A DNA stretch of 63,915 nt, counting the filler, from Candidatus Hydrogenedentota bacterium (GTDB lineage Bacteria; JBFMHD01): assembly GCA_040752395.1 (NCBI GenBank). It is 8 parts of 8 records of this genome, joined end to end, with 100 filler letters (N's around TTAATTAATTAA, not from the genome) between each part and the next. Parts side by side here need not be neighbours in the genome. Positions count along the whole stretch, not along the records: positions 18,758 to 24,884 come from JBFMHD010000169.1; positions 24,985 to 45,664 come from JBFMHD010000017.1; positions 45,765 to 51,865 come from JBFMHD010000170.1; positions 51,966 to 58,002 come from JBFMHD010000171.1; 4 more parts are not named here. The stretch is one strand, 5' to 3'. The notes beneath the pieces are model-generated. The model saw only the letters and a list, made by a program, of their open reading frames with translations, did not search any database and was not told the origin of the DNA. Positions 22,490-54,462 of this stretch are shown here, in pieces; within the stretch, counting starts at the first letter, position 1, and each line of letters begins with the position of its first letter. Both the position numbers and the translations under genes were made by a program.

Positions 22490-22634
22490 CTCCTCTGAAA
22501 AACATTGTAACTCTAATAATATCAAATAGAAGCAAGAAGCAAGAGGCAAGAAGCAAGATAACGCAAGAACGCAATAGTGTAGAGCGCAAACCGCGTTCAT
22601 GAGTACTCCTATGAAAAGTCTTGAGTCTTGGGTC
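22490..22634 (-). repeat. Mosaic element supplying the SD of the FG-GAP gene
   Basis: Revcomp reads GACTTTTCATAGGAGTACTCATG-REP-(CTTGCTT)n-TATTAGAGTTACAATGTTTTTCAGAGGAG-7nt-ATG. Confidence 0.9.
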
Positions 22635-22646
22635 TACTAAAGAGAA

Positions 22647-22662
22647 AGCAAGGCATATGCCA
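22647..22662 (-). promoter_or_regulatory. sigma54 (-24/-12) promoter
   Basis: TGGCATATGCCTTGCT, GG-N10-GC. Confidence 0.75.
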
Positions 22663-22818
22663 GTTTTGTTGGAGGAATTAATTCTAATATTTGTAGGATT
22701 TAATTTCTTTTATTAAGTGTGATATAGATTTTAATTTTTCACTTTGATAAAGATGAACTCAAATTTTTATCAAAATGAGAAGTAACATCCAGGCGAATAT
22801 CTAATGGTTATTATTTTA

Positions 22819-24360
22819 TTATATAGGTGTGATTTCAATTCTTTTTGATTGTTTATTTTCTTTGAACACACAGTATCTGGACTCAGTGTTTAAACAAATG
22901 GACTCGTTACCGATACTGATTTTAGAGCCTGGGAAGGCTGTATCCATAACTTTTACATAGCCTAAAACATTCGAGTATGCTCCCTGCATCAGTTTCTCTT
23001 CGTCCTCTTTAAGTTGGAAGATACGATATTTTACAGCGACCAGAGTTTTCTTTAATTGTATAAGCTTGTCTCTTTTTTCTGGTGGCAGTGCATTTAAATT
23101 TTTAATAAAATGTTCAAAGTCATAAATTACTTTTTCGATTTTATCTTGTTTCTGGATAAGATCAGCCATCTCCAATGATATTGCTTCAATCTTTTTGAGT
23201 ATATCAAGTGATATACCTATGTAAATCTCGGTTTTTGTACCGACATAAGACCCGATAAATTTTGCCCTGACACTGTCTTTTGCTTTAATAGTTCCGCCTA
23301 TTATAAACCCTTTCCCTTCCTCTACCACTACATCGCCCCCTGATAATATGTTACTATGTAGTATAGCAGATTTTACCACAACTTTTTCGCCTGCAATAAT
23401 GTTTGCATTCTCGATAAATTTAGCTTCAACTATCTTTGCTGCACTGATCAGTCCTTTTCCACTACCCTGTATTCCTTGTTTTATGATAACGCTTCCATTT
23501 ATACTTTTTATTATAGCGGCTTCGACACCACCACCAATAGAAATATTCCCATCAGCTTCTAAGTATAAACCGCTACGAACATAGCCTTTTATCTCTATAT
23601 CACCAGAGAAAGTCAGATTACCAAGAGAGACATCGAGGTCAGCTGGAATAAAATAGTATTTCTTGATTGTAAGAAGTTTACCGTCCCAATAGGCCTGACC
23701 GTTTATCAATGATGTTACTACGTTGGTATCCGGGTTATATTTAAAGTCTTCACAAAGATTTAATTCAAGATTTTTTGTTGGTGGTGGTTTGATTGCTTTC
23801 CCTTTTACTGTAATACCATCAGTGCCTTTATCTTCTGGATGGCAGATTAGTATAATCTCATCTTTATTCACAGGTTTAATGCTTTTACCTGTGGAATCAA
23901 ACTCTATTTTCCATTCCAACCAGCCATCTTTACCAGCTACAGGATCTTTTTGTCGAGCTATAACCATATCCTTAATAATGTCGAGGTTTTCGTGTTTTTT
24001 TATTACTTCTTTTAGATTTTCTTCAATAATACCAAACTTGACACCATTTTGGTTTAATTCCTGAAGCAGTGTTGCTCTATCAATAGACTTTCCATTCCCT
24101 ATAGGTGGGAATAGGTCAATAGAGGCATAACTTTCATCTTTGCTTATTTTAACTTTAAGTTCAGCATCCTTTGATGGCAATACCTTATAATTGTCTTTTA
24201 CAAGATTAAAGAGTTCTTTTTGAACCTCTATATTAGTATGCCCAATATTTTCTATAATCTCTCTTATTTCTTTATCTGTGGCCAGGGAACCATCCCTCTC
24301 GAGTTCTGTAAGTATCAGATCAGTATCAATCAATAAATGATCAAGTTGATTGGGATTCAT
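22819..24360 (-). CDS. FapA/DUF342 family protein (flagellar assembly)
   Basis: PPIGNGK, GVKFGI, GNLTFSGDIEIKG, beta-helix repeats, IIGG...GTKT, coiled coil. Confidence 0.9.
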   Translation of the reverse strand: MNPNQLDHLLIDTDLILTELERDGSLATDKEIREIIENIGHTNIEVQKELFNLVKDNYKVLPSKDAELKVKISKDESYASIDLFPPIGNGKSIDRATLLQELNQNGVKFGIIEENLKEVIKKHENLDIIKDMVIARQKDPVAGKDGWLEWKIEFDSTGKSIKPVNKDEIILICHPEDKGTDGITVKGKAIKPPPTKNLELNLCEDFKYNPDTNVVTSLINGQAYWDGKLLTIKKYYFIPADLDVSLGNLTFSGDIEIKGYVRSGLYLEADGNISIGGGVEAAIIKSINGSVIIKQGIQGSGKGLISAAKIVEAKFIENANIIAGEKVVVKSAILHSNILSGGDVVVEEGKGFIIGGTIKAKDSVRAKFIGSYVGTKTEIYIGISLDILKKIEAISLEMADLIQKQDKIEKVIYDFEHFIKNLNALPPEKRDKLIQLKKTLVAVKYRIFQLKEDEEKLMQGAYSNVLGYVKVMDTAFPGSKISIGNESICLNTESRYCVFKENKQSKRIEITPI

Positions 24361-24583
24361 AATATTTACCCTCCTTTTTATTAAAGTTGAAACTATTTAT
24401 ATAATTCCTTTCATTAAGTAGGAGGATAATGGTATCATAATAGATTCCAAAAAGTCGAAGAAATCTATCAAGTTCTTGTGAAATTTTTTTTGTATCATCA
24501 CAATAAATTAATGTTGAGATGGTTTTCAATGAAGCCAGTAATTCGCTTTTTATAGAACTAACAAATTTTTTAGTGTCATTCAT
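24341..24583 (-). CDS. Hypothetical small protein upstream of fapA
   Basis: Strong SD GAGGAGG; overlaps the fapA start. Confidence 0.65.
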   Translation of the reverse strand: MNDTKKFVSSIKSELLASLKTISTLIYCDDTKKISQELDRFLRLFGIYYDTIILLLNERNYINSFNFNKKEGKYYESQST

Positions 24584-24626
24584 CTTGATTTACCTCCTCT
24601 TTTTTAATAAACTCTACTAAAATAAG

Positions 24627-24642
24627 AGCAAAGGGTGTGCCA
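24627..24642 (-). promoter_or_regulatory. sigma54 (-24/-12) promoter
   Basis: TGGCACACCCTTTGCT, GG-N10-GC. Confidence 0.8.
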
Positions 24643-24884
24643 TAATTTTAATTCTTTAGTTAGCAATATTTTTTATTTAAGATACAAGTTTTGTATGAAA
24701 AGATTATTTTCATTTTGATAATTAAATATTGATATAAACAGGGTTTTTATGTATATTACTATACTTTAGCAGAAAATAAGTCAATGGATTTCATTTAAGC
24801 AGCCATTTTCAAGGTATTAAATAATGATTCTAATTTTTTATGGTTCACAGGGAAGTGATATAAACTATCAAAAATTAATTAGTG

Positions 24885-24984
24885 NNNNNNNNNNNNNNNN
24901 NNNNNNNNNNNNNNNNNNNNNNNNNNNNTTAATTAATTAANNNNNNNNNNNNNNNNNNNNNNNNNNNNNNNNNNNNNNNNNNNN
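24885..24984. other. Artificial contig linker
   Basis: N44-TTAATTAATTAA-N44. Confidence 0.99.
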
Positions 24985-25106
24985 AACAGGACTCGAGACT
25001 CAAGACTCAAGACTCAAGACTTTTCATAGGGGGCTCCAGCCGGCTGTAGTCCGTAGCCCGTAGCCTGTACCCCGAATTATTAGAGTTACAGCGTTTTTCA
25101 GAGGAG
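24985..25106 (+). repeat. Mosaic element supplying the SD of moxR
   Basis: (GACTCAA)n-TTTTCATAGGGG-CAGCCGGCTG-(TAGCCCG)-TTATTAGAGTTACAGCGTTTTTCAGAGGAG. Confidence 0.92.
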
Positions 25107-25116
25107 GGACTATTCT

Positions 25117-26100
25117 ATGTCTTTACAAGAGATTCAAGAAAGAGTTGAAAAAGAGAGTATTTTTGTAGAAGAGATATTTAATGAGATGAAGAAAGTCATA
25201 GTAGGTCAGCAAAAGTTGATCGAGCGATTGATTATTGGGCTGATTTCAAGGGGCCACATTTTAATCGAGGGTGTGCCAGGACTTGCTAAAACATTAGCTT
25301 GTTTATCTTTATCAAAGATAGCTGATTTAAAGTTTCAGCGGATCCAATTCACACCGGATTTACTTCCTGCTGATTTAACAGGTAGTCTTATATATAATTA
25401 TCAGAAAGCTGAATTTACAGTAAGAAAAGGGCCTATCTTTACAAACATACTGTTAGCTGATGAGATCAACCGTTCGCCTGCAAAGGTTCAGAGTGCTTTA
25501 CTTGAGGCTATGCAGGAGCGAAGAGTAACTATCGGTGAAGATACTTTCAATCTACCTGAGCCATTTTTTGTTCTTGCTACTGAAAATCCGATAGAGCAGG
25601 AAGGAACGTATCCTTTACCCGAGGCACAGGTCGACAGGTTTATGCTTAAAGTTGTTATTACCTATCCTGAGGTTGAAGAAGAAAAAATAATAATTGATCG
25701 AGCCTATGAGATAGAGAGTATCAAACTTAATAAAGTTATTAGTCCTGAGAGATTAGTCAAGGTAAGGGATGTTATTCAAAGTATATACTGTGATGATAAG
25801 ATAAAGGATTATGTGGTAGATTTAGTTCGGGCCACAAGGGAGCCTGAAAAATTTGGGTTTTCTTCTTTCAAAGACCTTATTGAGTATGGTGCTTCACCGC
25901 GAGCTTCAATATATCTTATTCAGTGTGCCAGGGCATTAGCATTTATGAGACATAGAGGTTTTGTTACACCCGAAGACATTAAGGCAATAGGCAGAGATAT
26001 TTTAAGACACAGGATAATTCTCAGTTATGAAGCTGAGGCTGAGAATGTTACAGCAGATAATATTATTGATAAGTTATTTGATACGATCCAGGTACCATAG
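25117..26100 (+). CDS. moxR: MoxR-family AAA+ ATPase
   Basis: EGVPGLAKT, RIQFTPDLLPAD, LADEINR, EQEGTYPLPEAQ, GASPR. Confidence 0.96.
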   Translation: MSLQEIQERVEKESIFVEEIFNEMKKVIVGQQKLIERLIIGLISRGHILIEGVPGLAKTLACLSLSKIADLKFQRIQFTPDLLPADLTGSLIYNYQKAEFTVRKGPIFTNILLADEINRSPAKVQSALLEAMQERRVTIGEDTFNLPEPFFVLATENPIEQEGTYPLPEAQVDRFMLKVVITYPEVEEEKIIIDRAYEIESIKLNKVISPERLVKVRDVIQSIYCDDKIKDYVVDLVRATREPEKFGFSSFKDLIEYGASPRASIYLIQCARALAFMRHRGFVTPEDIKAIGRDILRHRIILSYEAEAENVTADNIIDKLFDTIQVP

Positions 26101-26220
26101 GGGTTAGAAGTAAGAAGTGAGAAGTGAGAAGTAAGATAACTGAAAGAAAGAAAGGGTTAAGGTTAGGGTTGAGGTTGAGGAAGGAAAAAGAAAGATAACA
26201 AGAGGCAAGATAAAGAAACT
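26101..26220 (+). repeat. Purine-rich heptamer/hexamer repeat insert
   Basis: AGAAGTG x3, AGGTTG units, GAGGCAAGATAA. Confidence 0.75.
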
Positions 26221-26253
26221 ATACCAAAGCATGAAAAAATACCGGGGTTTTAC

Positions 26254-27129
26254 GTGGCAAGTGAGATTATTAAAAAAGTCAAAAAGATAGAGATTACCTC
26301 AAAAAAGTTAGTGAATGAATTTTTTGGTGGTGAGTATCATTCTGTATTTAAAGGTCAGGGGATTGAATTTCAGGAAGTAAGGGAGTATGTTCCGGGAGAT
26401 GAAGTAAAGAACATAGACTGGAATGTCACTGCTCGTATCGGGATGCCATACATTAAGAAATTTCACGAAGAAAGAGAACTCACTTTAATGATCGCTCTTG
26501 ATCTCTCAGGTACCCAGATTTTCGGGTCTGGCTCATTATTAAAACGTGAGGTTGCAGGTGAGATAGCAGCGGCTGTGGCATTCTCAGCTCTTAAAAATAA
26601 TGATAAAGTTGGCCTGCTTTTATTTACTGATAGAATAGAATTATTTATACCACCACGTAAAGGAACTAAACATATCCTGAGAATCCTTAGAGACTCGGTA
26701 TATTTTAAACCATCAGAGAAAAAAACAAGTATTACTCTTGCTTGTAATGTTTTAAATAGCGTATTAAAGCGTAAAGGCATTGTATTGTTTATATCTGATT
26801 TTCTTGATAATAATTTTGAGAAAGAAATCAAAACACTCTCAAAAAGACAGGATTTAATCCCTGTTATATTAAGAGATAAAAGAGAGGCAGAACCACCTGA
26901 CAGAGGGTTATTCAGACTCCTTAATCCTGAAACAGCAGATATTATGACAATAGATTTAGCAGATAAAAAAATTAAAGAATTCTATCTTAATAAGGTTAAC
27001 ACCCATTATAAAAATCTTAAAACAATGTTTGTTCAGACAGGGTGTATACCTGTGGAAATATTCACTGATACTGATTGGGTTAAAGTATTAAGAGTTTATT
27101 TTGAGAAACGAATAAAGAGAAGAAGATGA
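26254..27129 (+). CDS. DUF58 (vWA-associated) protein
   Basis: FKGQGIEFQEVREY.PGD, IDWNVTAR, EEREL, DLSGT, ISDF. Confidence 0.93.
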   Translation: MASEIIKKVKKIEITSKKLVNEFFGGEYHSVFKGQGIEFQEVREYVPGDEVKNIDWNVTARIGMPYIKKFHEERELTLMIALDLSGTQIFGSGSLLKREVAGEIAAAVAFSALKNNDKVGLLLFTDRIELFIPPRKGTKHILRILRDSVYFKPSEKKTSITLACNVLNSVLKRKGIVLFISDFLDNNFEKEIKTLSKRQDLIPVILRDKREAEPPDRGLFRLLNPETADIMTIDLADKKIKEFYLNKVNTHYKNLKTMFVQTGCIPVEIFTDTDWVKVLRVYFEKRIKRRR

Positions 27130-28079
27130 ATCTGATTAAAAGATTCAAAGAACTTACTGCTTTTTTATTTATTATTCCGACGATAGTGTTAGGGTTCCCA
27201 CTTGAGAGTGAAATAACCCCAGAGCAAGGGTATATAGGCGACACTTTTCTTTTAAATATCAATGTAAAACCATCTGCTTCTCAGTCTATCCTTGAATATC
27301 AGTACGATTTAGCCGAAGATAATTTTGATATTATTGACAAACAAACCTCGAATCCCGGGGGCGGAATACAGGAGACATATACATTGATAAGTTTTAATAC
27401 TGGTCGGTTAAGCCCAGGAGAGGTGAATTTAGTTTTACTTAATTCAACAGATGGGTCTACCGAGCCTTTTAAAATAACGTTACAGGATATAAATATAAAA
27501 TCTGTATTACAGGATAAAGCTGATACAATAAATATATATCCTGAAAGAGAGCCTGTAGCTATTAATAAATCGTATAAATATTTTATGAAAATGATATTTT
27601 TTATTTCCGGAATTATACTACTGATTTTGATAATGGTTATACTTATAAAAAAATATGCTTCAAAATTTATTAAAAAAGTTAAAAAAGAGATTATTGACCC
27701 GAGAACAGCTTATGAAATGGCATTAGATAGATTAGAGGAGATAAGAAAGAAGGATTATATAGGTAGCGGTTTGATCAAAGAGTATTACATAGAGGTACTG
27801 AATGTTTTGAGAATATATCTATCAGAGGTTTCGGGCCGAGGATTGCTTTCAGATACGATGGAAGAAGCGATGGGGGTCTTCAGAGATATTGTTTTAAATA
27901 ACGAATTCACAGAGATAAAAGACATATATTTTGAGGCCTGGATGGTAAAATTTGCAAAATATTATCCAGAGAAAGATAATATAAAGAGTTTCATTGACAG
28001 AGTTGAGGATTGGATAAAATCTTATTACAAGAGAACAAAAGAGGAATCACAAAATGCAGTTAGCTCAAAGCGGATTTAA
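27126..28079 (+). CDS. Bat-operon membrane protein (BatD-like N-terminus)
   Basis: Signal peptide, TM segment, AYEMAL...KEYY...VKFAK motif; operon position. Confidence 0.75.
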   Translation: MNLIKRFKELTAFLFIIPTIVLGFPLESEITPEQGYIGDTFLLNINVKPSASQSILEYQYDLAEDNFDIIDKQTSNPGGGIQETYTLISFNTGRLSPGEVNLVLLNSTDGSTEPFKITLQDINIKSVLQDKADTINIYPEREPVAINKSYKYFMKMIFFISGIILLILIMVILIKKYASKFIKKVKKEIIDPRTAYEMALDRLEEIRKKDYIGSGLIKEYYIEVLNVLRIYLSEVSGRGLLSDTMEEAMGVFRDIVLNNEFTEIKDIYFEAWMVKFAKYYPEKDNIKSFIDRVEDWIKSYYKRTKEESQNAVSSKRI

Positions 28080-29037
28080 AATATTACTCTTAGTCATTAT
28101 TTTATTCATAATTGCTATTATATTTCGAGAAAGGAGACGAGTAACCATACCCTTTTCAGGGTTATGGTTCTTAACAGATTATAAGAGTAAAAGAAGTCTT
28201 TTAAAGTATTTAACTGATTTATTGAGGATACTTGGAATTATTTTTCTTGTTATTGCTTTAGCAAGACCTCAGCGTGTTGAAAAGGGACTCTATTCTCATA
28301 TAGAGGGTGTGGATATCGTTTTAGTTTTAGATAGGTCCGGGAGTATGATATCAGAAGATTTTAAACCTAAAAACAGGCTTGATACAGCAAAAAATGTTAT
28401 CTCTGAATTTATTGATAAACGTCAGAATGACAGAATAGGGCTTGTTATTTTTGCAAGGAATAGCTATCTACAAGCACCTTTAACACTTGACCATGCAATA
28501 ATTAAAAAAGTCCTGGATAAAGTTGAGATAGCTCAAGGCGAAGAAGACGGAACTGCCATAGGAATGGGACTTATGAATGGGATCAACAGACTGAAAAATT
28601 CAAATGCTAAAAGTAAAATTATAATACTGTTAACAGATGGTGTAAACAATGCAGGTGCGGTTGACCCACAAACCGCTGCGAAAGTCGCTGAAGCCTATAA
28701 TATTAAAATTTACACAATTGGGGTCGGTACTGAAGGCTATGCACCAGTCCCTTTTTATCATCCGATATTTGGGAAGGTTTATCAGAATGTAAAGGTTGAG
28801 ATAGATGAAGAAATTTTAACTAAAATATCTGAGATAACACGAGGTGTTTTTTATAGAGCCACTAATCCTCAGAGACTTCGTCAAATATATAATGAGATAG
28901 ATAAACTTGAAAAAAGCAAATATGAGCAAAAAATTACAAATTATAAAGAAGAGTATTTTGTATTTGCGTTCATCGGATTATTGTTTTTATTTGTTGAGAT
29001 TCTTTTAAGAAATACGTTATTTCTCGAGATATTTTAA
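28054..29037 (+). CDS. batA: vWA domain protein BatA
   Basis: ALARPQ, DRSGSM, PLTLD, GTAIG, LLTDG, IYTIGVG. Confidence 0.92.
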   Translation: MQLAQSGFKILLLVIILFIIAIIFRERRRVTIPFSGLWFLTDYKSKRSLLKYLTDLLRILGIIFLVIALARPQRVEKGLYSHIEGVDIVLVLDRSGSMISEDFKPKNRLDTAKNVISEFIDKRQNDRIGLVIFARNSYLQAPLTLDHAIIKKVLDKVEIAQGEEDGTAIGMGLMNGINRLKNSNAKSKIIILLTDGVNNAGAVDPQTAAKVAEAYNIKIYTIGVGTEGYAPVPFYHPIFGKVYQNVKVEIDEEILTKISEITRGVFYRATNPQRLRQIYNEIDKLEKSKYEQKITNYKEEYFVFAFIGLLFLFVEILLRNTLFLEIF

Positions 29038-29430
29038 CCAGTTACTTTTTTAGATGAGTTTTCATGAGCACTTTTGTGCTCTACACCTAACCCCCAGAAT
29101 ATGTGAAAAAATTGTAGTGAGCATCTTTAGATGCGTCTGCAAAGGCACAAAGGCAGACAGTACGATGAAAAAGATAGGAGTTAGGAGTTCGTGATAATAG
29201 ATCCGAGCTCCGAGCTTCGAACTTTTTCAGAGGAGTACTCATGAACACGGTTTGCGCTCTACACTATTGGGTTATTGCGTTTTTGCGCTCTACACAAAGG
29301 ATGAAAAACTAAAGATGATATGAAAAGAGTCACAAGTCGCAAGTCGTGAGTCAAAACAGGACTCAAGACTCAAGACTTTTCAGCAGGCTCCGGGCTTCGG
29401 GCTACAGCCGGCAGGAGCCCAAAGCCCGGA
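29038..29430 (+). repeat. Long mosaic element between batA and batB
   Basis: Two TGAAAA-heptamer hairpin-TTTTCA cassettes separated by the GAGGAGTACTCATG-REP core. Confidence 0.92.
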
Positions 29431-29442
29431 AGAAGGAACACT

Positions 29443-30444
29443 ATGGAATTTTATAGACAAGAAATGTGGTTTATTTTACTGATACCGATTTTATGTATTT
29501 TTATTATACTTTATGGTAGAACTAAACTAAAGGACTTACGAAATAGATTCGCAAACTTAAACACTTTATTTAAAAGCGGTTATAAAAAACCATCAAAAAC
29601 TATCCTTAAACCATTATTATTAATTACCGCTATGTTTTTTATTAGTATCAGTCTTTTACAGCCACAATGGGGTACTAAACCCGAAACATTTATAATTCAG
29701 GGGCTTGATATGATGGTAGTATTTGATATTTCTGTCAGTATGCTTGCTAATGATGTCTATCCTGATAGAATCAGTTTCGCTAAACAGGTCATTACTGATG
29801 TTATTGATAGTTTAGGGAATGACAGAGTAGGGTTAATCGGGTTTGCAGGCAAACCTTATTATTTCTGCCCGCTTACAGTAGATTATGAGGCGTTTAAATT
29901 ATATCTTGATGCTATGACAGTTCAGGATGTTCCTGTACAGGGGACTGCTATGGATTTAAGTTTGCAATTAGCAGAAGAAGTGCTTGAAAAGAGCGAGGGC
30001 AAGTACAGGATTATTTTGCTTGTATCTGATGGTGAAGACCATTCAGAAGAGACAATGGATATTGGGCGGGATTTACAAAAAAAGGGGATACTTATCTTTA
30101 CTGTTGGTATTGGCACTATCGAGGGTGGACCAATCTCTTTATCAAATATCGGTAAAGCGGGCTACAAAAAAGATAAAAAAGGCAACGTTGTAATGAGTAG
30201 CTTAAACGAAAAACTACTTTATGAGATTGCCGAAACTACTTACGGTGGTTATTTCAGAGCAACACAGACTCTCGAAACTATAGATTTGCTTAAAAAAGAA
30301 TTGTCATTATTAAAACGCGGTAAGATTAAGGAAGAAAAAGTTACAAGAAAAAAGGATAGATTTCAGATACCTTTATTTATAGGTATTATTCTTATATCGC
30401 TTGAATTTTTACTTATCGAGAGAGGGATTGAAGATGAAGAATAG
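29443..30444 (+). CDS. batB: vWA domain protein BatB
   Basis: PQWG, DISVSM, PLTVD, QGT, SDGEDH, VGIGT. Confidence 0.9.
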   Translation: MEFYRQEMWFILLIPILCIFIILYGRTKLKDLRNRFANLNTLFKSGYKKPSKTILKPLLLITAMFFISISLLQPQWGTKPETFIIQGLDMMVVFDISVSMLANDVYPDRISFAKQVITDVIDSLGNDRVGLIGFAGKPYYFCPLTVDYEAFKLYLDAMTVQDVPVQGTAMDLSLQLAEEVLEKSEGKYRIILLVSDGEDHSEETMDIGRDLQKKGILIFTVGIGTIEGGPISLSNIGKAGYKKDKKGNVVMSSLNEKLLYEIAETTYGGYFRATQTLETIDLLKKELSLLKRGKIKEEKVTRKKDRFQIPLFIGIILISLEFLLIERGIEDEE

Positions 30445-31090: not shown

Positions 31091-31093
31091 AAA

Positions 31094-32945: not shown

Positions 32946-32958
32946 TAGACAAGGTAAA

Positions 32959-33711: not shown

Positions 33712-34001
33712 AAGCAAGGGGCAAGATAACGGAAAGAAAGACAACGAAGGGCACAGAGTAGTGAGGGTCACAAGACCCGTTCGAAGGAGTACCCATGAGC
33801 GCGGTTTGCGCTCTACACTATTGAGTTATTGGGTTATTGCGTTCTAAATTCTGGCTGTTGACTACAGATCTCATCATTCCGCATTCCGCATTTTTTAAAG
33901 GATGTTGGCTTCAGGCTCCGGGCTTTTGGCTCCAGCCGGCTGTAGTCCGTAGCCCGTAGCCTGTACCCCGAATTATTAGAGTTACAGCGTTTTTCAGAGG
34001 A
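33712..34001 (+). repeat. Mosaic element upstream of the GC-rich gene
   Basis: GGAGTACCCATG-REP, (ATTCCGC)n, CAGCCGGCTG hairpin; 3' part essentially identical to about 25032-25105. Confidence 0.92.
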
Positions 34002-34004
34002 TGT

Positions 34005-36982: not shown

Positions 36983-37200
36983 ATTGTAAATTGCAAAATG
37001 GAATCAGTTTAGGGAGTCAAAGAGTCGTGAGTCACAAGTCGCAAGTCGTGAGTCAAAACAGGACTCGAGACTCAAGACTTTTCATAGGGGGCTCCAGCCG
37101 GCTGTAATCTGTAGCCTGTCCTGATACTTCTTACTTTTTCCGTTATCTTGCTTCTTGTTTCTACTTGATATTATTAGAGTTACAACGTTTTTCAGAGGAG
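36983..37200 (+). repeat. Mosaic element between rplM and rpsI
   Basis: GAGTC/GACTC hairpin, CAGCCGGCTG, TTATTAGAGTTACAACGTTTTTCAGAGGAG. Confidence 0.92.
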
Positions 37201-37209
37201 GTTTTTAGC

Positions 37210-37602: not shown

Positions 37603-37619
37603 TAGGAGGAAGCATTAAT

Positions 37620-42771: not shown

Positions 42772-42820
42772 TTAAATAAATAAGTAAAATTAATATTTAA
42801 CTTTTCAGAGGAGAAAGAAA

Positions 42821-45392: not shown

Positions 45393-45664
45393 AAAAGATA
45401 AGAGCGTAGAATTTAGGAGACAGGAGACAGAAGACAGGAAGTTAAAGAGTCGAGAGTCGTGAGTCAAAAAACACAAAAAATCGGGAAAAACCGGAGAAAA
45501 ACGAAAAAAAACTGGACGGTTCTGGTTTTTCTTGTTTCTGCATTCCGCATTCTTACTGATACTTCTCACTTCTCACTTTTCAGAGTAGGCACAAAGGCAC
45601 AAAGGCACAATTGAAAATTGAAGATTGGAAATTGTAAATTGCAAAATTAACGAAAAAACAACGG
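45393..45664. repeat. Mosaic heptamer element at contig end
   Basis: AGGAGAC, GAGTCGA, CATTCCG, CTTCTCA, AAGGCAC and AAATTGN units. Confidence 0.88.
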
Positions 45665-45764
45665 NNNNNNNNNNNNNNNNNNNNNNNNNNNNNNNNNNNN
45701 NNNNNNNNTTAATTAATTAANNNNNNNNNNNNNNNNNNNNNNNNNNNNNNNNNNNNNNNNNNNN
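45665..45764. other. Artificial contig linker
   Basis: N44-TTAATTAATTAA-N44. Confidence 0.99.
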
Positions 45765-45960
45765 GCCGGCTGGAGCCAAAAGCCAAAAGCCTGCTGAAAA
45801 GTCTTGAGTCTTGAGTCTCGAGTCCTGTTTTGACTCACGACTTGCGACTCACGACTCTTTTCATATCATCTTTAGTTTTTCATCCTTTGTGTAGAGCGCA
45901 AAAACGCAATAACCCAATAACCCAATAGTGTAGAGCGCAACCCGCGCTCATGAGTACTCC
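45765..45960 (-). repeat. Inverted copy of the 29230-29410 element
   Basis: Near-identical reverse complement including the REP GTAGAGCGCAACCCGCGCTC. Confidence 0.92.
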
Positions 45961-46022
45961 TTTAAAGTGTCTCACGTTTCAGGGGAGTAATATATTCCCA
46001 TTTCTTCTCCACCTATAACTGA

Positions 46023-47165: not shown

Positions 47166-47174
47166 AAAGTTATT

Positions 47175-48461
47175 ATGAACAAAGATACTTTGATAAATTT
47201 ATTAAGAAAGAAGGAGATAATAGGCACAGTAAAAAAAGTTGCCAGGACCGAGGGTATTGAGGTACCAGAGCTTGCTGATTTGATACTAAACAGCAGAGTT
47301 GTTATACCATGTAATATTCTTAATAGAGACAGACTAAAAGTATGTGGTATCGGTGAAAAATTAAGAGTTAAAATAAATGCTAATATAGGTACATCTCCTG
47401 ATTGCCATAATCTTGATGTAGAGATAGCTAAAGCCAGGACCGCTGTTAAGTACGGCAGTGATACTTTAATGGATTTATCCATTGGAGGAGATGTATATAA
47501 AATATTAAAGGGGATAAGAGAAACGGTTGACATACCACTTGGCACAGTTCCGGTTTATACCGCATCCGTAAAAGCAAAAGAGAAATATGGTGTTTCATCT
47601 AAAATTACTGAAGATGATTTATTTGAAAGTGTAGAAAGGCATTGTGAGATTGGCGTTGATTTCATAACAGTTCATTGTGGAGTGACCCGGAAAGTATTAG
47701 AGATATTAAAAAATAAAAAGAGGATATTAAACATAGTGAGTCGGGGAGGCGCTTTACTTGCTAATTTTATGTTGAAAAACGATTGCGAGAACCCATTCTA
47801 CGAAAAATTTGATAGATTGCTTGATATTGCAGCTTGTTATGATGTTACGTTAAGTTTAGGTGATGGTTTAAGACCCGGCTGTATTGAAGATGCGACTGAT
47901 ACGCCGCAGATCGAAGAGATGATAGTTTTATCACAACTCGCTAAAAGAGCAGCAACAAGAGGTGTTCAAGTAATGATTGAGGGACCAGGTCATATACCAT
48001 TAAATGAGATTGAGACCAACATAAAAATACAGAAATCTTTATGTAATGGAGCACCATTTTATGTTCTTGGTCCGCTTGTAACAGACGTAGCTGTTGGCTA
48101 TGATCACATTGCTTCAGCGATTGGCAGTGCTTTAGCGGGTTTAGCAGGTGCTGATTTTTTATGTTATGTGACACCTGCTGAACATCTCGGACTACCAACC
48201 ATTGAAGATGTTAAAACAGGTGTTATAGCTTCTAAAATAGCTGCACATAGTGTTAACATCGCACGTGGATTTAAAGATGCAAGAGAAAGAGATAGATTAA
48301 TGGCTATCGCAAGACAGAAACTTGACTGGGAAAAACAATTTGAGCTCGCATTTGACCAGGAAATCCCAAAAGAAAAAAGAAATAAAATTTTACCAGTAGA
48401 TGAAGAATTATGCTCTATGTGCGGTGAATACTGTGCTATTTTGGCTTCTAAGAATTTATGA
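47175..48461 (+). CDS. thiC: Phosphomethylpyrimidine synthase
   Basis: KINANIG, MDLS, GTVPVY, SRGG, LGDGLRPG, EGPGH, CSMCGEYC. Confidence 0.95.
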   Translation: MNKDTLINLLRKKEIIGTVKKVARTEGIEVPELADLILNSRVVIPCNILNRDRLKVCGIGEKLRVKINANIGTSPDCHNLDVEIAKARTAVKYGSDTLMDLSIGGDVYKILKGIRETVDIPLGTVPVYTASVKAKEKYGVSSKITEDDLFESVERHCEIGVDFITVHCGVTRKVLEILKNKKRILNIVSRGGALLANFMLKNDCENPFYEKFDRLLDIAACYDVTLSLGDGLRPGCIEDATDTPQIEEMIVLSQLAKRAATRGVQVMIEGPGHIPLNEIETNIKIQKSLCNGAPFYVLGPLVTDVAVGYDHIASAIGSALAGLAGADFLCYVTPAEHLGLPTIEDVKTGVIASKIAAHSVNIARGFKDARERDRLMAIARQKLDWEKQFELAFDQEIPKEKRNKILPVDEELCSMCGEYCAILASKNL

Positions 48462-49408
48462 ATCGGCTCCCAAATTATTTAAGACTATCTATAACTGATA
48501 GATGCAATTTAAGATGCAAATATTGTATCGGGACCTTTGTCTATTTAAAAAGAGAAGAAATTCTTACTCTTGAAGAACTTTATAGAACCTCTTATCTTTT
48601 TTCAAGATGCGGGATTGATAAATTAAGAATAACTGGCGGTGAACCGCTTGTAAGAAAAGGTGCTACAGAATTAATTAATAAAATTACTGAGTCTGAGCTA
48701 TTTAATGACATATCTCTAACCACTAACGGAATGTTATTAGAAGAAAAGGCTGATGAATTGTTTAAAGCCGGTATAAGAAGACTTAATATCAGTCTCGCTA
48801 CACTTGATAATGAAGAGTATTACGGATTAACAGGCGGAGATTTGAACAAGGTTTTAAGAGGGATAAATTTAGCAAAAACCACTGGCTTTGAATCGATCAA
48901 GATAAATGTTGTATTATGGAAAGGACTACAAGAGAACGAGATCAACAATTGGATAGAATTTTCACAAAAGAATAATTTAACAGTACGATTTATCGAACAG
49001 ATGCCGATTGAATCAGGGATGTTTATTCAGGAACAATGGCCACGAACTACGGCAGGGAATGTTTTAGAGATAATAAGAAATAAATATATAATTGAAAAGA
49101 TAGATATTAAAGGTGCAGGACCCGCTTCTTATTATAAATTGAGAGAAAAAAAAGTAGTGTTTGGTATTATCAATTCTATGGACCATAATCAATGTCTTAC
49201 CTGCAACAGGATAAGAGTCTCAGCAAAAGGTGAATTAAGGTATTGCCTTTTTCAGGATGATTGCGTAGATTTGAAATACATTTTACGGAATGAAAAAGAT
49301 GATGAAAAATTAATTGAGATGTTGAAAAAAATAGTTTCTAATAAGGTGTCGTACAAAAATAATAATCCTCGAATATTATCACAACCTATGTCCTATATAG
49401 GAGGATAG
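48458..49408 (+). CDS. moaA: GTP 3',8-cyclase
   Basis: CNLRCKYC, TGGEP, CLTCNRIR...C, C-terminal IGG. Confidence 0.96.
   Translation: MNRLPNYLRLSITDRCNLRCKYCIGTFVYLKREEILTLEELYRTSYLFSRCGIDKLRITGGEPLVRKGATELINKITESELFNDISLTTNGMLLEEKADELFKAGIRRLNISLATLDNEEYYGLTGGDLNKVLRGINLAKTTGFESIKINVVLWKGLQENEINNWIEFSQKNNLTVRFIEQMPIESGMFIQEQWPRTTAGNVLEIIRNKYIIEKIDIKGAGPASYYKLREKKVVFGIINSMDHNQCLTCNRIRVSAKGELRYCLFQDDCVDLKYILRNEKDDEKLIEMLKKIVSNKVSYKNNNPRILSQPMSYIGG
49314..49408 (+). repeat. Direct repeat copy 1 (moaA 3' end)
   Basis: 95 bp, 7 mismatches and no indels versus 50416-50510. Confidence 0.95.
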
Positions 49409-49587
49409 ACGAAATTCTGTAAATCTCGAATTATAAATTGAAGATTGCAAATTGTAAATTTTAAAATGAAACAAGAGGCTTGGCACCTACTGATGAATTA
49501 TAAATTGTAGATTGGAAACTCGGGAGTTAAAATCGGGGAATTGCCTTCGGCAACTTCGTGAATACAAGACGATAAATAAAAGATTTT

Positions 49588-49917
49588 TTATATTAATGGA
49601 ATGTCCTTACGACTTTTTAGGATTTCAGAGAGGATACTTGCTTTTTCTGGTTTCTGGTATTCATCCCAAAAAATACACCGCGGTTCAATGTTATAATCTA
49701 CCTTGGCCGCATAATGAAAAAGAGATGCTGTAATATTTATTCTATTACTTCCAGCCAGCTTATCAACTACTACTCCTACATCAATATCACTATCTTTTGA
49801 TACTTTCCCTTTTGCATAGGATCCATATATAAACACTTTTTTTACAGAATAAATATCTTTAATCAATAAATAAAATTGCCTGACTTTTTCCTTAATTAAA
49901 TCTTTCTTTTTAACCAT
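49588..49917 (-). CDS. Minimal nucleotidyltransferase (MNT) antitoxin
   Basis: IYGSYAKG...SDIDV. Confidence 0.9.
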   Translation of the reverse strand: MVKKKDLIKEKVRQFYLLIKDIYSVKKVFIYGSYAKGKVSKDSDIDVGVVVDKLAGSNRINITASLFHYAAKVDYNIEPRCIFWDEYQKPEKASILSEILKSRKDIPLI

Positions 49918-50285
49918 TTAAACAAACTCCTGGTTTTTCTTAAAATCTCAAACGATCTTTTTTTTGTTAAACTTTTAAATAATTCTTTGATTGTTTCGGT
50001 ATATCTTGATTCAAGGTAATAGGAATTCAGCAATTCAACAAATGTTAGCTCGCTTTCTTTAATCATTGATGCAATTGATGTTAAGTTAATTAATTTTATT
50101 AAATTATGAGTATACGGTGGTGTTTTATTATTTTCTTTTACATAAATTGCTTTTAATATTTTCTCTATTGCCTGCTGGCAGGTGAATGCCACATAAAGGT
50201 ATCTCCTGGATTTATACATATGTTTAGCAGTTTTTAAGTCATATTCTGCAATAATCATCCAATTTTTAACTATTTTTTCACTCAT
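49896..50285 (-). CDS. HEPN domain protein
   Basis: AEYDL, QQAIEKILKA, PYTHNL, SRY; overlaps MNT. Confidence 0.9.
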   Translation of the reverse strand: MSEKIVKNWMIIAEYDLKTAKHMYKSRRYLYVAFTCQQAIEKILKAIYVKENNKTPPYTHNLIKLINLTSIASMIKESELTFVELLNSYYLESRYTETIKELFKSLTKKRSFEILRKTRSLFKWLKRKI

Positions 50286-50415
50286 AAACTACCTCTAAAT
50301 CTATAAATTTTCTGTTTTTCAATATCATGATACATTACCAATAAATTTACTATATTTTTGAAAAGCTATCAAATATTTTATTTGATTTGCGTATACATGA
50401 AATGAAAAAAAATAG

Positions 50416-50510
50416 TTGAAATGTTGAAAAAAATAGTTTTTAATAAGGCGTCGTACAAAAATAATAATCCTCGGATATTATCGCAACCTATGTCCTGGAT
50501 AGGAGGATAG
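50416..50510 (+). repeat. Direct repeat copy 2 (duplicate moaA 3' end abutting moaC)
   Basis: Encodes ...SQPMSWIGG* and ends GGAGGATAG-ATG. Confidence 0.95.
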
Positions 50511-51005
50511 ATGAAACTACCTACAAAGTTCAGTCACTTAACTAAATCTGGGGATGCTCGAATGGTCTCAATATCAAATAAAGAGAAAACGCATCGAATT
50601 GCTATCTCAAAAGCTGAAATAAAAATTAATAAAAAAACAATGAATTTAATACTTAAAAATGAGATCCCCAAGGGCGATATCTTTAGTGTCTCTCGAAACG
50701 CAGGTATTATGGCAGTTAAGAAAACAGCAGAATATATTATTTTAGCACACCCTTTAAATATTACAGCTATTAATATAGACTTTAATATAAATAAAAAAAT
50801 GTCTATCATAGAGGTTGAGGTACGGGTTGAGGCTTTTGACAGGACTGGTGTTGAGATGGAATCGCTTGTTGGAGCAACAGCTGCTTGTTTAAATCTTTAT
50901 GATATGATAAAATCTGTTGATAAATCCGCAAGAATAAATAATATTCGTCTTGTGTATAAAAAAGGTGGTAAAAGTGGCGAGTATATTAGACCGCCTCAAC
51001 TTTAG
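50511..51005 (+). CDS. moaC: Cyclic pyranopterin monophosphate synthase
   Basis: ARMV, KGD, AGIMAVKKT, TGVEME, YDMIKSVDK, KKGGKSG. Confidence 0.95.
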   Translation: MKLPTKFSHLTKSGDARMVSISNKEKTHRIAISKAEIKINKKTMNLILKNEIPKGDIFSVSRNAGIMAVKKTAEYIILAHPLNITAINIDFNINKKMSIIEVEVRVEAFDRTGVEMESLVGATAACLNLYDMIKSVDKSARINNIRLVYKKGGKSGEYIRPPQL

Positions 51006-51053
51006 ACTCTGGACTGATAACTTTTTAAAGCAAGGCATAGGATAAAAGTATAG

Positions 51054-51542
51054 ATGTTAAGAAATTGTTCTATAATTACAGTATCAACCTCGAGAAAAAG
51101 TTTAAAAGTCGATAAATCGGGTAATATCATTCAGAGTTTTTTGAAAAAAAATTACCCTGATCTTAAAATTAACAGATTTATTGTAAAAGATAACGAAAAA
51201 ATTATATTTACGTTATTAAAAAGAAGAGTTATTCTTAAAGATGATTTAGTCCTGACAACTGGTGGGACAGGTTTAAGCCCTGATGACGTGACACCCGAGG
51301 CTACTATGAGAGTTATTAAAAAAGAGGTACCGGCTGTGATTCTCTCGTTGATACTTCCTTTTATTAAAAAGATACCAACCTCTGCACTATCAAGAGCAAA
51401 AGCAGGAATAGCCGGTAAAACATTCATCGTAAATTTACCCGGCTCTCCTTTGGCCTGTAGAGACCAGATGAAAATATTATTAAAATATCTTAACCATGCA
51501 ATGGGAAAAATACAGGGCGATAAGACACCTTGTAGAGTTTGA
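51054..51542 (+). CDS. mog: MogA/MoaB family molybdopterin adenylyltransferase
   Basis: DKSG, TTGGTGLSPDDVTPEAT, LSRA, NLPGSP. Confidence 0.88.
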   Translation: MLRNCSIITVSTSRKSLKVDKSGNIIQSFLKKNYPDLKINRFIVKDNEKIIFTLLKRRVILKDDLVLTTGGTGLSPDDVTPEATMRVIKKEVPAVILSLILPFIKKIPTSALSRAKAGIAGKTFIVNLPGSPLACRDQMKILLKYLNHAMGKIQGDKTPCRV

Positions 51543-51703
51543 TTATGTTTGGATTATTTGATAGACTTTTCAAAAGAGAAAAAAGGGTGTCCCCGATTAG
51601 AAATGTCGCCTGGCTTATCTCGATAAGACTCTATATTTTTTTCACTATTTTAGTGATAATATTATTAATTTATCTATTTATTTTTATCTAATTGAATTCA
51701 GTC

Positions 51704-51865
51704 TGTAACCACTCAGGTATAGATGATATAATAGAGGCAAGAAGCAAGATAACGGAAAGAAAGATAACGAAAGGCCCAGAGGCACAAAGTATGAAAAACT
51801 AAAGATGATATGTTGGCTTCAGGCTCCGGGCTTCGGGCTCCAGCCGGCTGTAGTCCGTAGCCTGT
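51704..51865 (+). repeat. Mosaic element at contig end
   Basis: GCAAGAAGCAAGATAACGGAAAG, ATGAAAAACTAAAGATGATATG, CAGCCGGCTG hairpin. Confidence 0.9.
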
Positions 51866-51965
51866 NNNNNNNNNNNNNNNNNNNNNNNNNNNNNNNNNNN
51901 NNNNNNNNNTTAATTAATTAANNNNNNNNNNNNNNNNNNNNNNNNNNNNNNNNNNNNNNNNNNNN
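51866..51965. other. Artificial contig linker
   Basis: N44-TTAATTAATTAA-N44. Confidence 0.99.
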
Positions 51966-52161
51966 GTCGTGAGTCAAAACAGGACTCGAGACTCAAGACT
52001 CAAGACTCAAGACTTTTCAGCAGGCTCCGGGCTTCGGGCTCCAGCCGGCTGTAGTCCGTAGCCTGTAGCCTGTAGCCTGTCCTGATACCTCTCACTTCTT
52101 CCGTTATCTTGCTTCTTGCTTCTATTTGATATTATTAGAGTTACAACGTTTTTCAGAGGAG
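51966..52161 (+). repeat. Mosaic element supplying the SD of udp
   Basis: Same modules as 37045-37200, ending TTTTTCAGAGGAG. Confidence 0.92.
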
Positions 52162-52169
52162 GGTTATGT

Positions 52170-52925
52170 ATGCAAAAGAATAAAGAATATCATATTGGAC
52201 TTGGTAAAGGTGATATAGGTAAATATGTTTTGCTACCTGGAGACCCGGGTAGAGTCCCTATAATCGCTTCATATTTCGATAAAGCTAAAGAGGTTGCGTT
52301 TAACCGTGAATATCGTACGTTTACCGGTTATGTTGACAGCATAAAGATATCATCGACCTCGACTGGTATCGGCTGTCCCTCGACTGCGATCGCTGTCGAA
52401 GAACTCATTAAATGTGGTGCTGAAGTTTTTATAAGAATAGGTACAGCTGGTGCCTTACAGAAAGAAGTGAAATTAGGTGACGTTACCATTACAACTGCTT
52501 CTGTAAGAGAAGAAGGTACCACTCGCCAGTACGTGCCTCTGAGTTATCCTGCGGTCGCTGACCTCGACGTAACCCTGGCATTACGGGAAGCTGCAAAAAG
52601 ATTAAAGATACGTGCTCATACCGGTATCTCGCATTGTAAAGATGCGTTTTATACCGAAGGTAAAGACATGGATGAACTACCAAACGGTATTATCACACGC
52701 CAGAAATGGGATGCCTGGTATAAATCCAATGTGCTCTCCACCTCAATGGAATCAGCAGCACTCTTTGTAGTATCATCCATAAGAAAGAAAAAAGCAGGTG
52801 AGGTTATGGCTATAATCGGACTTACTTATGATGATGCACCTATTGTAAAAAAAGTAGGTATCGACGAAGCTATCAGAGTAGCGATCGAATCAGTTAAAAT
52901 ATTGAATAAAGAAATGAAGATTTAA
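52170..52925 (+). CDS. udp: Uridine phosphorylase family nucleoside phosphorylase
   Basis: YHIGL, LPGDPGR, NREY, STGIGCPS, RIGTAG, MESAA; start moved to ATG 52170. Confidence 0.85.
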   Translation: MQKNKEYHIGLGKGDIGKYVLLPGDPGRVPIIASYFDKAKEVAFNREYRTFTGYVDSIKISSTSTGIGCPSTAIAVEELIKCGAEVFIRIGTAGALQKEVKLGDVTITTASVREEGTTRQYVPLSYPAVADLDVTLALREAAKRLKIRAHTGISHCKDAFYTEGKDMDELPNGIITRQKWDAWYKSNVLSTSMESAALFVVSSIRKKKAGEVMAIIGLTYDDAPIVKKVGIDEAIRVAIESVKILNKEMKI

Positions 52926-52947
52926 GTCGAGCTCAGAATAATAGGTC

Positions 52948-54165
52948 TTAATTAATCCTCATTGCTTCTTTATCAACAACCTTGCCATGACTGATGGTAT
53001 AAAGCGGCTGTTTGTGATACATAAATGTCTCGTAAACTGATTTTGCATCAAGCACCACGAGATGCGCATCATTACCCTCTTTCAGCCCATACTTTTTTAT
53101 ATTCATAGCCCTTGCTGCATCAATGGTTATCATATCATACACTTTCTCCATCTCGCCGAAGGTGGTCATCCAGAGCAAATGAATATTTAAAAACCCGACT
53201 TCAAGCTGACTATTCTGACCAAAAGGATAGTAAGCGTCAGCGATATCATCCTGTCCAAAAACCACAAGCGCATTTTCAGCTATCATCTCTTTCACTTTTG
53301 CGTGCAAAGGTCCTGTATGCGGGTCACTGACCACACCGAGCTCGGCTTTCTTAAGAAGCGCGACAAGTTTTCTGAAATATGGTTCAGGATACAGCCCCAT
53401 AGCTCTTGCATGATGCGCAAGAGAACGGCCTATCCTTTCCTCTTCCAGTGTTTTCAAGGTGAGCATTTCAAGGGTACGCAGTCCCGGGTCACCTGCGTCG
53501 TCAACCAGCATCGAAATATCTGCATCGTATTGTTTGGCTATTTTCATCATCTGGTTTATATGTTCCTGTGCGTCTTTATCCGTGTATTCGATCCATGGTA
53601 TACCGCCAACCACATTGGCACCGAGGTCCATCGCTTTTTTAATAAGGTCAGTGGTTCCCGGTTCACGCACAACGCCATCCTGCGGGAATGCAACAACCTG
53701 GACATCTACGATACCTTTGAATTCGTCTCTTGCTTTGAGTAGTGCTTTGAGCCCGATAAGTTTTGCTTTCGAGTCAACATCAGCAAATGCCCGCAGATGC
53801 GTTGTGCCGTTTAATGCCGCGAGCTTTAACGCTTTCCTCACGTTCTCTATAATCCATCTCTCGTCATACCTCTCTTTTATACGTGCAGCCAGTTCTATAG
53901 CAGTCATGGCAGCACCCATATCTTTGCCGTGGTATGATTTCAAAGCAAGTTCATCCATCATAGTCAGCGTATAAACCTTACATAAATGCAGGTGTGGATT
54001 GACAAATGATTCGGTAACAAGATTCCCTGCGGCATTGATTTCAGAACCCCCTTTCTCTTTTATCTTTTTCTCGATCTTTTTAATCACTCCTTTACTGATA
54101 CCAATATCAACTTTTGATTTACTGGTTCTTATTTTTGCATTACGAATAATAATGTCGTATACCAT
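52948..54165 (-). CDS. Cytosine deaminase-like metal-dependent amidohydrolase
   Basis: NPHLHLCK, VVAFPQDG, VGGIP, GQDDIADAYYPFG; start moved to ATG 54165. Confidence 0.88.
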   Translation of the reverse strand: MVYDIIIRNAKIRTSKSKVDIGISKGVIKKIEKKIKEKGGSEINAAGNLVTESFVNPHLHLCKVYTLTMMDELALKSYHGKDMGAAMTAIELAARIKERYDERWIIENVRKALKLAALNGTTHLRAFADVDSKAKLIGLKALLKARDEFKGIVDVQVVAFPQDGVVREPGTTDLIKKAMDLGANVVGGIPWIEYTDKDAQEHINQMMKIAKQYDADISMLVDDAGDPGLRTLEMLTLKTLEEERIGRSLAHHARAMGLYPEPYFRKLVALLKKAELGVVSDPHTGPLHAKVKEMIAENALVVFGQDDIADAYYPFGQNSQLEVGFLNIHLLWMTTFGEMEKVYDMITIDAARAMNIKKYGLKEGNDAHLVVLDAKSVYETFMYHKQPLYTISHGKVVDKEAMRIN

Positions 54166-54173
54166 CGTAAGAC

Positions 54174-54462
54174 CTCCTCTGAAAAACATTGTAACTCTAA
54201 TGATATCAAGTAGAAGCAAGAGGCAAGAAAACGTCTGAATCTCCTCTGAAAAACTTCGCAACCCTAATAATTTGGGCTACAGGCTACAGGCTACGGACTC
54301 CAGCCAGGTGGAGCAAAAAGCCCAAAGCCTGCTGAAAAGTCTTGAGTCTCGAGTCCTGTTTTGACTCACGACTTGCGACTCACGACTCTTTTTATATCAT
54401 CTTTAGTTTTTCATACGTTGTGTAGAGCGCAACCCGCGCTCATGTTGACTCCTATGAAAAAG
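54174..54462 (-). repeat. Mosaic element with two TTTTCAGAGGAG ends
   Basis: Revcomp carries REP, GAGTC/GACTC hairpin and two SD modules (54174-54203, 54241-54270). Confidence 0.92.

Follow-up and report, generated by a model that had tools for sequence, protein, structure and literature searches.

A modular intergenic repeat whose conserved end holds a Shine-Dalgarno sequence in front of unrelated genes of a Candidatus Hydrogenedentota bacterium

Introduction

Several genes of unrelated function in a 63,915-nt stretch of DNA from a Candidatus Hydrogenedentota bacterium (assembly GCA_040752395.1; the whole stretch is called the window here) begin a few nucleotides after one and the same conserved sequence, which forms the end of an intergenic repeat and finishes in the Shine-Dalgarno (SD) hexamer GAGGAG. 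Does the repeat supply the ribosome-binding site (RBS) of these genes, or did it settle beside SD sequences that were already there? A first-pass annotation of the window had raised both alternatives. As a description, its claim that the repeat end supplies the RBS was borne out in all the sequence covered, the SD of the repeat being the sole SD-like motif at working distance from the starts. As to its meaning, the 31-nt terminus of the repeat may well be a repeat-borne, shared translation-initiation leader, U-rich and ending in a canonical SD; we judge the case for and against this to be evenly balanced.

The window consists of eight contigs placed end to end and separated by seven 100-nt linkers (44 N, TTAATTAATTAA, 44 N) at 6169-6268, 12425-12524, 18658-18757, 24885-24984, 45665-45764, 51866-51965 and 58003-58102. 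Gene neighbourhoods that span a linker are therefore not real; every junction between a repeat end and a gene is contained within a single contig. The window has 51 gene models, 7,020 intergenic bases and a G+C content of 35.8%.

Copies of the repeat end and their placement

The conserved end is 31 nt long and has the layout ATTATTAGAGTTACA-NN-GTTTTTCAGAGGAG. Its copies and related sites are listed below, with the match to the 29-mer TATTAGAGTTACARYGTTTTTCAGAGGAG in brackets where there is one.

22490..22520, minus strand: 31-nt end, long form (22490-22518); ATG 22482 of the FG-GAP gene, 7 nt past GAGGAG
25076..25106, plus strand: 31-nt end, short form (25078-25106); ATG 25117 of moxR, 10 nt past GAGGAG
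33972..34002, plus strand: 31-nt end, short form, GAGGAT variant (33974-34002); ATG 34005 of the YfhO-like gene, 2 nt away
37170..37200, plus strand: 31-nt end, long form (37172-37200); TTG 37210 of rpsI, 9 nt past GAGGAG
52131..52161, plus strand: 31-nt end, long form (52133-52161); ATG 52170 of the uridine phosphorylase gene (udp), 8 nt past GAGGAG
54174..54204, minus strand: 31-nt end, long form (54174-54202); ATG 54165 of the amidohydrolase gene, 8 nt past GAGGAG
54241..54271, minus strand: nested, diverged end keeping GTTTTTCAGAGGAG; a second long-form module comes next, no gene
5709..5739, plus strand: degenerate end, terminating in CAGTGGGG; 9 nt before the in-frame TTG 5749
42802..42813, plus strand: solo TTTTCAGAGGAG, the rest of the repeat being absent; GTG 42821 of the NtrC-type regulator gene, 7 nt away
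45577: junction copy TTTTCAGAGTAG, not associated with a start

With up to 3 mismatches allowed, the 29-mer matched the window six times, each time with 0 or 1 mismatch, and 100 shuffled sequences gave no match. The six ends that had been reported before the FG-GAP, moxR, YfhO-like, rpsI, udp and amidohydrolase starts were recovered within 1 nt, and the bare motif before the NtrC gene and the degenerate copy near 5734 were located at 42802-42813 and 5709-5739. Overlooked in the first pass were the nested copy at 54241-54271(-), the junction copy at 45577 and three sites in front of miniature open reading frames (mini-ORFs). Shorter parts of the end were also in excess over expectation in the window: the core GTTTTTCAGAGGAG gave 11 matches at up to 2 mismatches (0.76 expected), and TTTTCAGAGGAG gave 12 at up to 1 mismatch (0.5 expected). 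The upstream half without the SD, ATTATTAGAGTTACA, had 10 matches in the window against 6.2 expected, and eight of them were true copies (5709, 22506, 25076, 33972, 37170, 52131, 54190 and 54257). All eight run on into ends of the TTTTCAG-GG type, and none is without the SD half; the remaining two matches, with 3 mismatches each, lie within coding sequence and were taken as chance. Since a search by the SD-free half recovers the same eight copies, their ascertainment is not circular.

Among eight copies the mean pairwise identity is about 1.0 from position -31 to the last G of GAGGAG (position 0), drops to 0.57 at +1 (mostly G) and +2 (mostly T) and is at background, 0.18-0.39, from +3 onwards. 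This boundary places the SD inside the repeat block and the start codons outside it. Seven of the eight window copies, and also a copy from another genome (L001, described below, with a distance of 9 nt), are followed at 2-10 nt by a start codon in the same orientation. For random intergenic placement on a random strand the probability of ending 2-12 nt before a co-oriented start is 0.026, and the binomial P is 3e-10 for the clean copies (6/6) and 7e-11 for 7/8 when the degenerate and nested copies are added. The orientation of every copy matches the direction of its downstream gene. A start codon is likewise found within 2-10 nt of 10 of the 12 sites resembling TTTTCAGAGGAG, seven of these starts belonging to real genes and three to mini-ORFs in the repeat; the sites without a nearby start are the nested copy at 54241 and the junction copy at 45577. 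The feature is real and strongly non-random.

No second SD-like word was found in the spacers between the repeat and the start codons (attaagt, ggactattct, gtttttagc, ggttatgt, gtcttacg, gtggataac), and the SD that these genes must use would appear to be the one at the repeat border, whether donated by the repeat or targeted by it. In the 42 genes without the repeat, a 4-mer of the AGGAGG family was present at -4 to -18 in 16 and a 5-mer in 10, and the exact hexamer GAGGAG in only two. Native SDs are common but varied, and nine identical GAGGAG hexamers are therefore hard to explain as independent native sites. The invariance of GAGGAG in the copies together with its rarity among native SDs (2/42) was counted in favour of donation by the repeat, as was the nested copy, which retains GAGGAG without a gene behind it.

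A mechanism could be proposed along these lines. A modular intergenic repeat, always pointing in the same direction as the downstream gene, would have the 31-nt sequence as its invariant 3' end, and the GAGGAG (often GAGGAGG) of this end would replace the native RBS of the gene 7-10 nt downstream, even that of rpsI in the conserved rplM-rpsI pair. The two hairpins of the repeat, A and B, would work at the RNA level, stabilising the 3' end of the preceding gene's transcript or partly terminating it. We infer both that ribosomes use the repeat SD and that this SD was carried to its sites as the repeat spread.

Genes served by the repeat end and their starts

Pfam searches identified FG-GAP, MoxR, the ribosomal proteins L13 and S9, an NtrC-type sigma-54 activator, a PNP/UDP phosphorylase and an amidohydrolase, the YfhO-like gene being recognised by its C-terminal match only. 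The ORF at TTG 5749 had no Pfam match and is cut by a contig end. There is no function in common among the genes served by the repeat end.

Five start codons were compared with homologues, which support the starts of moxR, rpsI, udp, the amidohydrolase gene and the NtrC gene. Homologues of MoxR are 327-329 aa long at about 100% coverage. When S9 is translated from TTG 37210, seven residues precede the conserved TGRRK motif, and the same seven are found in the S9 protein of genome G001, which also starts at TTG. Residue 1 of Udp aligned to residue 1 of solved Udp chains, residue 3 of the amidohydrolase to residue 5 of chain 2qt3_A, and residue 5 of the NtrC protein to residue 3 of chain 1ny5_A. 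The first in-frame ATG, GTG or TTG of the rpsI, udp and amidohydrolase ORFs is inside the repeat (37165, 52116 and 54261, respectively), and automatic gene calls may extend into the repeat, adding 15-32 false N-terminal residues.

Structure of the repeat

Upstream of its fixed end the repeat is a mosaic. In a full composite the order is an SD with a mini-ORF module, hairpin A with UUUUCA, hairpin B, an optional pyrimidine-rich heptamer stretch and the 31-nt end. An A/T-rich linker lies between the mini-ORF module and hairpin A, and the modules are frequently joined at TTTTCA. The modules are located as follows.

29224..29269, plus strand: mini-ORF module (TTTTCAGAGGAG, 5 nt, ATG) on the 5' side of the composite; more copies at 22606-22617(-), 54449-54460(-), 45909-45972(-) and within 33780-33820(+)
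37018..37086, plus strand: hairpin A (GAGTC/GACTC heptamer arms) followed by UUUUCA, from folding; other copies at 29320-29386(+), 54330-54396(-), 51966-52016(+) and 45806-45861(-), partial at 24985-25026(+)
52016..52082, plus strand: hairpin B (GGCTCC... against GTAGCC heptamers), from folding; other copies at 29383-29442(+), 33907-33968(+) and 54275-54331(-), truncated in 25024-25072 and 37084-37125
52082..52161, plus strand: long-form 3' module (CTTGCTT heptamers and the 31-nt end), pyrimidine/U-rich, unstructured by prediction (z +0.6 to +2.0); others at 37125-37200(+), 22490-22575(-) and 54174-54240(-)

The long form, in which a stretch of CTTGCTT heptamers precedes the end, is present before the FG-GAP gene, rpsI, udp and the amidohydrolase gene. 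In the short form, hairpin B is joined directly to the 31-nt end; this form was found before moxR and the YfhO-like gene, in L001, in the nested copy and at 5709. Mini-ORFs were predicted at 22598-22621(-), 29236-29300(+), 33790-33820(+), 45909-45972(-) and 54420-54448(-), with the pattern (TTTTCA)NAGGAG, 5 nt, ATG, a peptide beginning M[NS][AT][VG]CALH..., a length of 9-23 codons and variable stops. The motif TTTTCA[G/T]AGGAG occurs three times (22606-22617(-), 29224-29235(+) and 54449-54460(-)), each time with the ATG of a mini-ORF of the repeat 5 nt further on.

Hairpin A folded at -18 to -24 kcal/mol (z -3.1 to -4.8) and hairpin B at -36.2 kcal/mol (z -4.6) and -28.4 kcal/mol (z -3.3). Significance was found only for the separate hairpins, the folds of whole spacers not being significant (z -0.2 and -1.6). 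Folded along with the start region, the 3' module was predicted to be unstructured (z +0.5 to +2.0), and for the rpsI and udp start regions 197 and 199 of 200 shuffled sequences, respectively, folded at least as well. By these predictions the 3' module would be as free of structure as expected of an accessible initiation region. No terminal inverted repeats were found in four composites, the inverted repeats present being the internal hairpins only, and no transposase or recombinase, including a Y1 transposase, was found among the 51 window genes. A classical MITE was rejected on account of the lack of terminal inverted repeats in the composites.

The conservation of the end goes further than the SD needs, about 25 nt upstream of it being invariant. 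This could be explained by a shared regulatory leader, in which the 31-nt end would be kept by a trans-acting factor (an RNA-binding protein, for instance S1, Csp or CsrA, or a small RNA) and the genes would form a post-transcriptional regulon, the long form perhaps combining a promoter with the RBS. Such a role would add to donation or targeting of the SD and does not exclude either. The strict orientation of the copies agrees with it, and so does TGATAT[TC]AT, which was read by eye about 30 nt before GAGGAG in 4/4 long forms and which we take, by comparison with the promoter consensus, to resemble an extended -10 box. A promoter and terminator scan found no -35/-10 site in the end modules; its counts in the window were the same as in shuffled sequences, and with a total of 66 -35/-10 sites against 63.7 in shuffles it was uninformative overall. 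Moreover, the genes served do not share a function, no Rfam family matched the window at the gathering score (0 matches), and recent spread of the repeat could by itself account for the invariance. We consider a shared regulatory leader unlikely.

The rplM-rpsI spacer and the origin of the Shine-Dalgarno sequence

Repeat modules interrupt rplM-rpsI, the genes for L13 and S9, and a bat operon. The rplM-rpsI spacer in the window is 227 nt long and made of repeat modules. In 12 distant genomes, for which the lengths were counted by hand, the spacer was 2-31 nt in eight, about 130-150 nt in two (L012 and L016), more than 600 nt in L013 and 16 nt in G001 (L003). The sequence AGGGAG, about 30 nt past the rplM stop and directly before hairpin A, could be a displaced native SD or part of the heptamer array. 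The bat operon contains a composite of 405 nt (29038-29442) between the batA-like gene and the next VWA gene in a cluster moxR-DUF58-batA-batB-TPR-batD. Inside these operons transcription must pass the hairpins, unless the modules bring promoters of their own.

The first-pass annotation had pointed to rplM-rpsI relatives, among others, as a source of evidence on whether the SD existed before the repeat, and the comparison was possible at great distance only. Upstream of rpsI in L016 the sequence is AAGAGGAGGTTTTTAAATTG, compared with CAGAGGAGGTTTTTAGCTTG in the window; the SD, the spacer and the TTG are similar, there is no such repeat in L016, and two more members of its clade have the same pattern. 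A nearly identical rpsI SD thus occurs without the repeat in this clade, and the relatives compared are only very distant ones (S9 about 52% identical; the L014 row, on the wrong strand, was left out of the rpsI alignment).

Several observations weigh against the reading of the end as a repeat-borne initiation leader. The L016 pattern just described is one of them, and on the evidence of these sequences the rpsI SD may be older than the repeat. Before the YfhO-like gene the SD is mutated to GAGGAT and lies 2 nt from the ATG, which makes its use doubtful, and the composite at 29038-29442 meets its gene without an end module. The solo TTTTCAGAGGAG before ntrC is not accompanied by any other part of the repeat. 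An Rfam search found no 16S rRNA in the window, so that the anti-SD was not seen. Finally, the sample is small: eight contigs (64 kb) and one contig of 2.2 kb.

Some of these observations could be explained by targeted insertion. In this case the element would end in ...GTTTTTCAG and insert into or beside an existing SD of the AGGAG type, perhaps duplicating it; the SD would be native or regenerated, and the repeat would simply lie next to a target that is abundant and harmless. The resemblance of the rpsI SD, spacer and TTG to those of a distant clade without the repeat is as expected from this, and the solo TTTTCAGAGGAG before ntrC could be an unoccupied or vacated site, except that it already holds the TTTTCA which this model assigns to the element. 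AGGAG marks not only the 3' border but also the 5' border of 5/5 composites with a mini-ORF module, and in the nested copy at 54241 an identical 14-mer is present on both sides of a 53-nt insert, like a target duplication; both the border AGGAG and the flanking 14-mer could instead be parts of the modules. With exact GAGGAG in 2/42 of the other genes, most eligible sites in the window would have to be occupied, no recombinase or transposase is encoded by the window genes, and the relatives on which the rpsI comparison depends are very distant. Targeting of existing SDs is a possibility to be held tentatively, and donation of the SD by the 31-nt terminus is only somewhat more probable.

As a separate observation, L012 (G003) and L016 (G005) belong to a small candidate phylum (25 species genomes) with heptamer hairpins of its own in the rplM-rpsI spacer. 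In these spacers the native SD is kept after the hairpin, a parallel to the design in the window in unrelated sequence.

Occurrence outside the window

The search of the genome_contigs collection with the SD-free half of the end gave at least one locus, L001, among the matches listed. Here a 24-codon ORF has its ATG 9 nt past an end of the short form. This is the single copy in the 2.9-Mb genome G001, whose L13 is 57% identical to that of the window, and the other 24 genomes of the G001 phylum (25 genomes) contain no copy of the motif; BLAST with a whole composite returned marginal matches of 22-28 nt only. C128, the contig carrying L001, is in our view a stray one that came from a relative of the window organism. 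Among 60 relatives of G001 the best L13 was 58% identical, and no close relative was reached. In the metagenome_contigs collection the scan gave one match, in coding sequence, judged by eye to be chance, and in the viral_contigs collection there were 0 motif matches.

The nearest L13 and MoxR in the protein collection are 66% and 72% identical, respectively, to those of the window. The best named matches of the two proteins are about 65% identical and scattered over planctomycetes of the Brocadiales type and several candidate phyla. A cyanobacterial or Beggiatoa source, which the heptamers had first brought to mind, was rejected on these matches and on the sigma-54 activator encoded in the window. 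Going by these proteins, the organism is without a close sequenced relative in the collections searched.

Of the 14 contig ends internal to the window, at least 7 are in repeat modules by our own reading, which suggests a family numerous enough to break up the assembly. The same fact, and the joining of eight contigs by linkers, could lead one to suspect an assembly artefact, with repeats collapsed or mis-joined in a fragmented draft and the junctions chimeric. The junctions between repeat end and gene are short enough to be covered by single reads and are different at every site, rplM and rpsI are expected neighbours, and an independent assembly (L001) has a junction of the same type; an artefact is highly improbable.

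Comparison with known repeats

The novelty implied in the first-pass annotation was overstated, because repeats bearing an RBS before unrelated genes are known from Neisseria (REP2) and Borrelia (IR). Word searches of the literature found no report of the present sequence family; these were searches by words and not by sequence, so that novelty is not established.

The REP2 (CREN) repeats of Neisseria, as described by Delihas 2011 (PMC3184786), are 120-150 bp long without terminal inverted repeats and carry two stem-loops, a promoter, an RBS and an ATG. According to the same text they are immediately upstream of 14 co-regulated genes and drive a contact-induced regulon. Judged by its published description, REP2 is the closest known design: both repeats are intergenic, are without terminal inverted repeats, have two stem-loops towards the 5' side and an RBS, and are co-oriented before unrelated genes. 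As in REP2, the RBS lies within the repeat, GAGGAG being in the identity block and 7-10 nt from the starts. However, REP2 includes the ATG, whereas the window repeat leaves the start codons outside, with identity at background from +3 and spacers that vary in length and sequence, and has an ATG of its own in the mini-ORF module only; REP2 has a promoter, whereas in the window end modules the -35/-10 scan finds none and the long forms carry TGATAT[TC]AT, as read by eye; and the upstream part of the window repeat is a variable mosaic of heptamer-based modules. The IR repeats of Borrelia plasmids are reported in the same source to lie directly upstream of genes and to contain a promoter, an RBS, an ATG and two stem-loops. 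They differ, on that account, in being plasmid-borne and in including the ATG; nothing in the window indicates a plasmid.

The TAACTGA heptamer repeats of marine Beggiatoaceae, some Cyanobacteria and Bacteroidetes, for which a translational role was proposed (MacGregor 2015, PMC4679880), are described in that paper as heptamer-based, intergenic, mostly in forward orientation and a few nucleotides from the starts of unrelated genes, all of which resembles the window repeat. However, they are reported there to sit at the RBS position with little SD character, and the heptamers of the window are different. A repeat of the TAACTGA or STRR type was rejected, as the gene-proximal 31 nt in the window lack a tandem structure and finish in an SD, and heptamer arrays occur upstream only. 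According to a review (PMC12548453), MIRUs are inserted at start codons, co-oriented with the gene and leaving downstream expression intact, and a small ORF is coupled at -4 nt. Coupling of this kind was rejected for the window repeat, in which the mini-ORFs, 9-23 codons long, have their stops at varying positions within the repeat and the spacers measure 7-10 nt. With REP/BIME and Correia-type MITE sequences the window repeat shares the nature of a mosaic, hairpin-forming intergenic repeat able to carry regulatory signals, but it is without terminal inverted repeats, is strictly oriented with the genes and has the SD at its border.

Ideas similar to a shared regulatory leader were proposed for the TAACTGA repeats and, by the published description, shown for REP2, and this speaks for such a leader in the window as well. 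The most far-reaching interpretation would be that a mobile or recombining mosaic repeat with a structure-free initiation cassette, in the long form perhaps with a promoter, overwrote the native RBSs of housekeeping genes in a deep-branching uncultured bacterium, even in rplM-rpsI, and that dozens of unrelated genes now share one 31-nt leader and could be controlled by a single factor. We put this forward as a rather unlikely extension of what was found. If ribosomes do use the repeat SD, a spreading repeat would have standardised the initiation of unrelated genes, including that of an essential ribosomal protein. The repeat would then be a natural portable RBS cassette, repeats could enter operons without killing downstream expression, a regulon could arise in one step, and the design known from Neisseria and Borrelia would be extended to a lineage without close sequenced relatives.

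Other features of the window

Two further repeats and one long frame were noted in the window. A sequence of about 105 nt is present in two direct copies, about 91% identical, at 49305-49414 and 50407-50516. It comprises the 3' end of moaA with an SD and the stop/start junction for moaC, and its copies flank a HEPN and nucleotidyltransferase (MNT-type) gene pair at 49588-50285(-). The pair has the look of a toxin-antitoxin cassette that entered between moaA and moaC and duplicated its target. At 18496-18657 there are three tandem units of 54 nt (93-100% identical) in an ORF with a weak HSBP1-like match, which is cut by a contig end. The long frame, at 58161-63914(-), is open over at least 1,915 codons, has no Pfam match at E <= 1e-5 and runs off the window.

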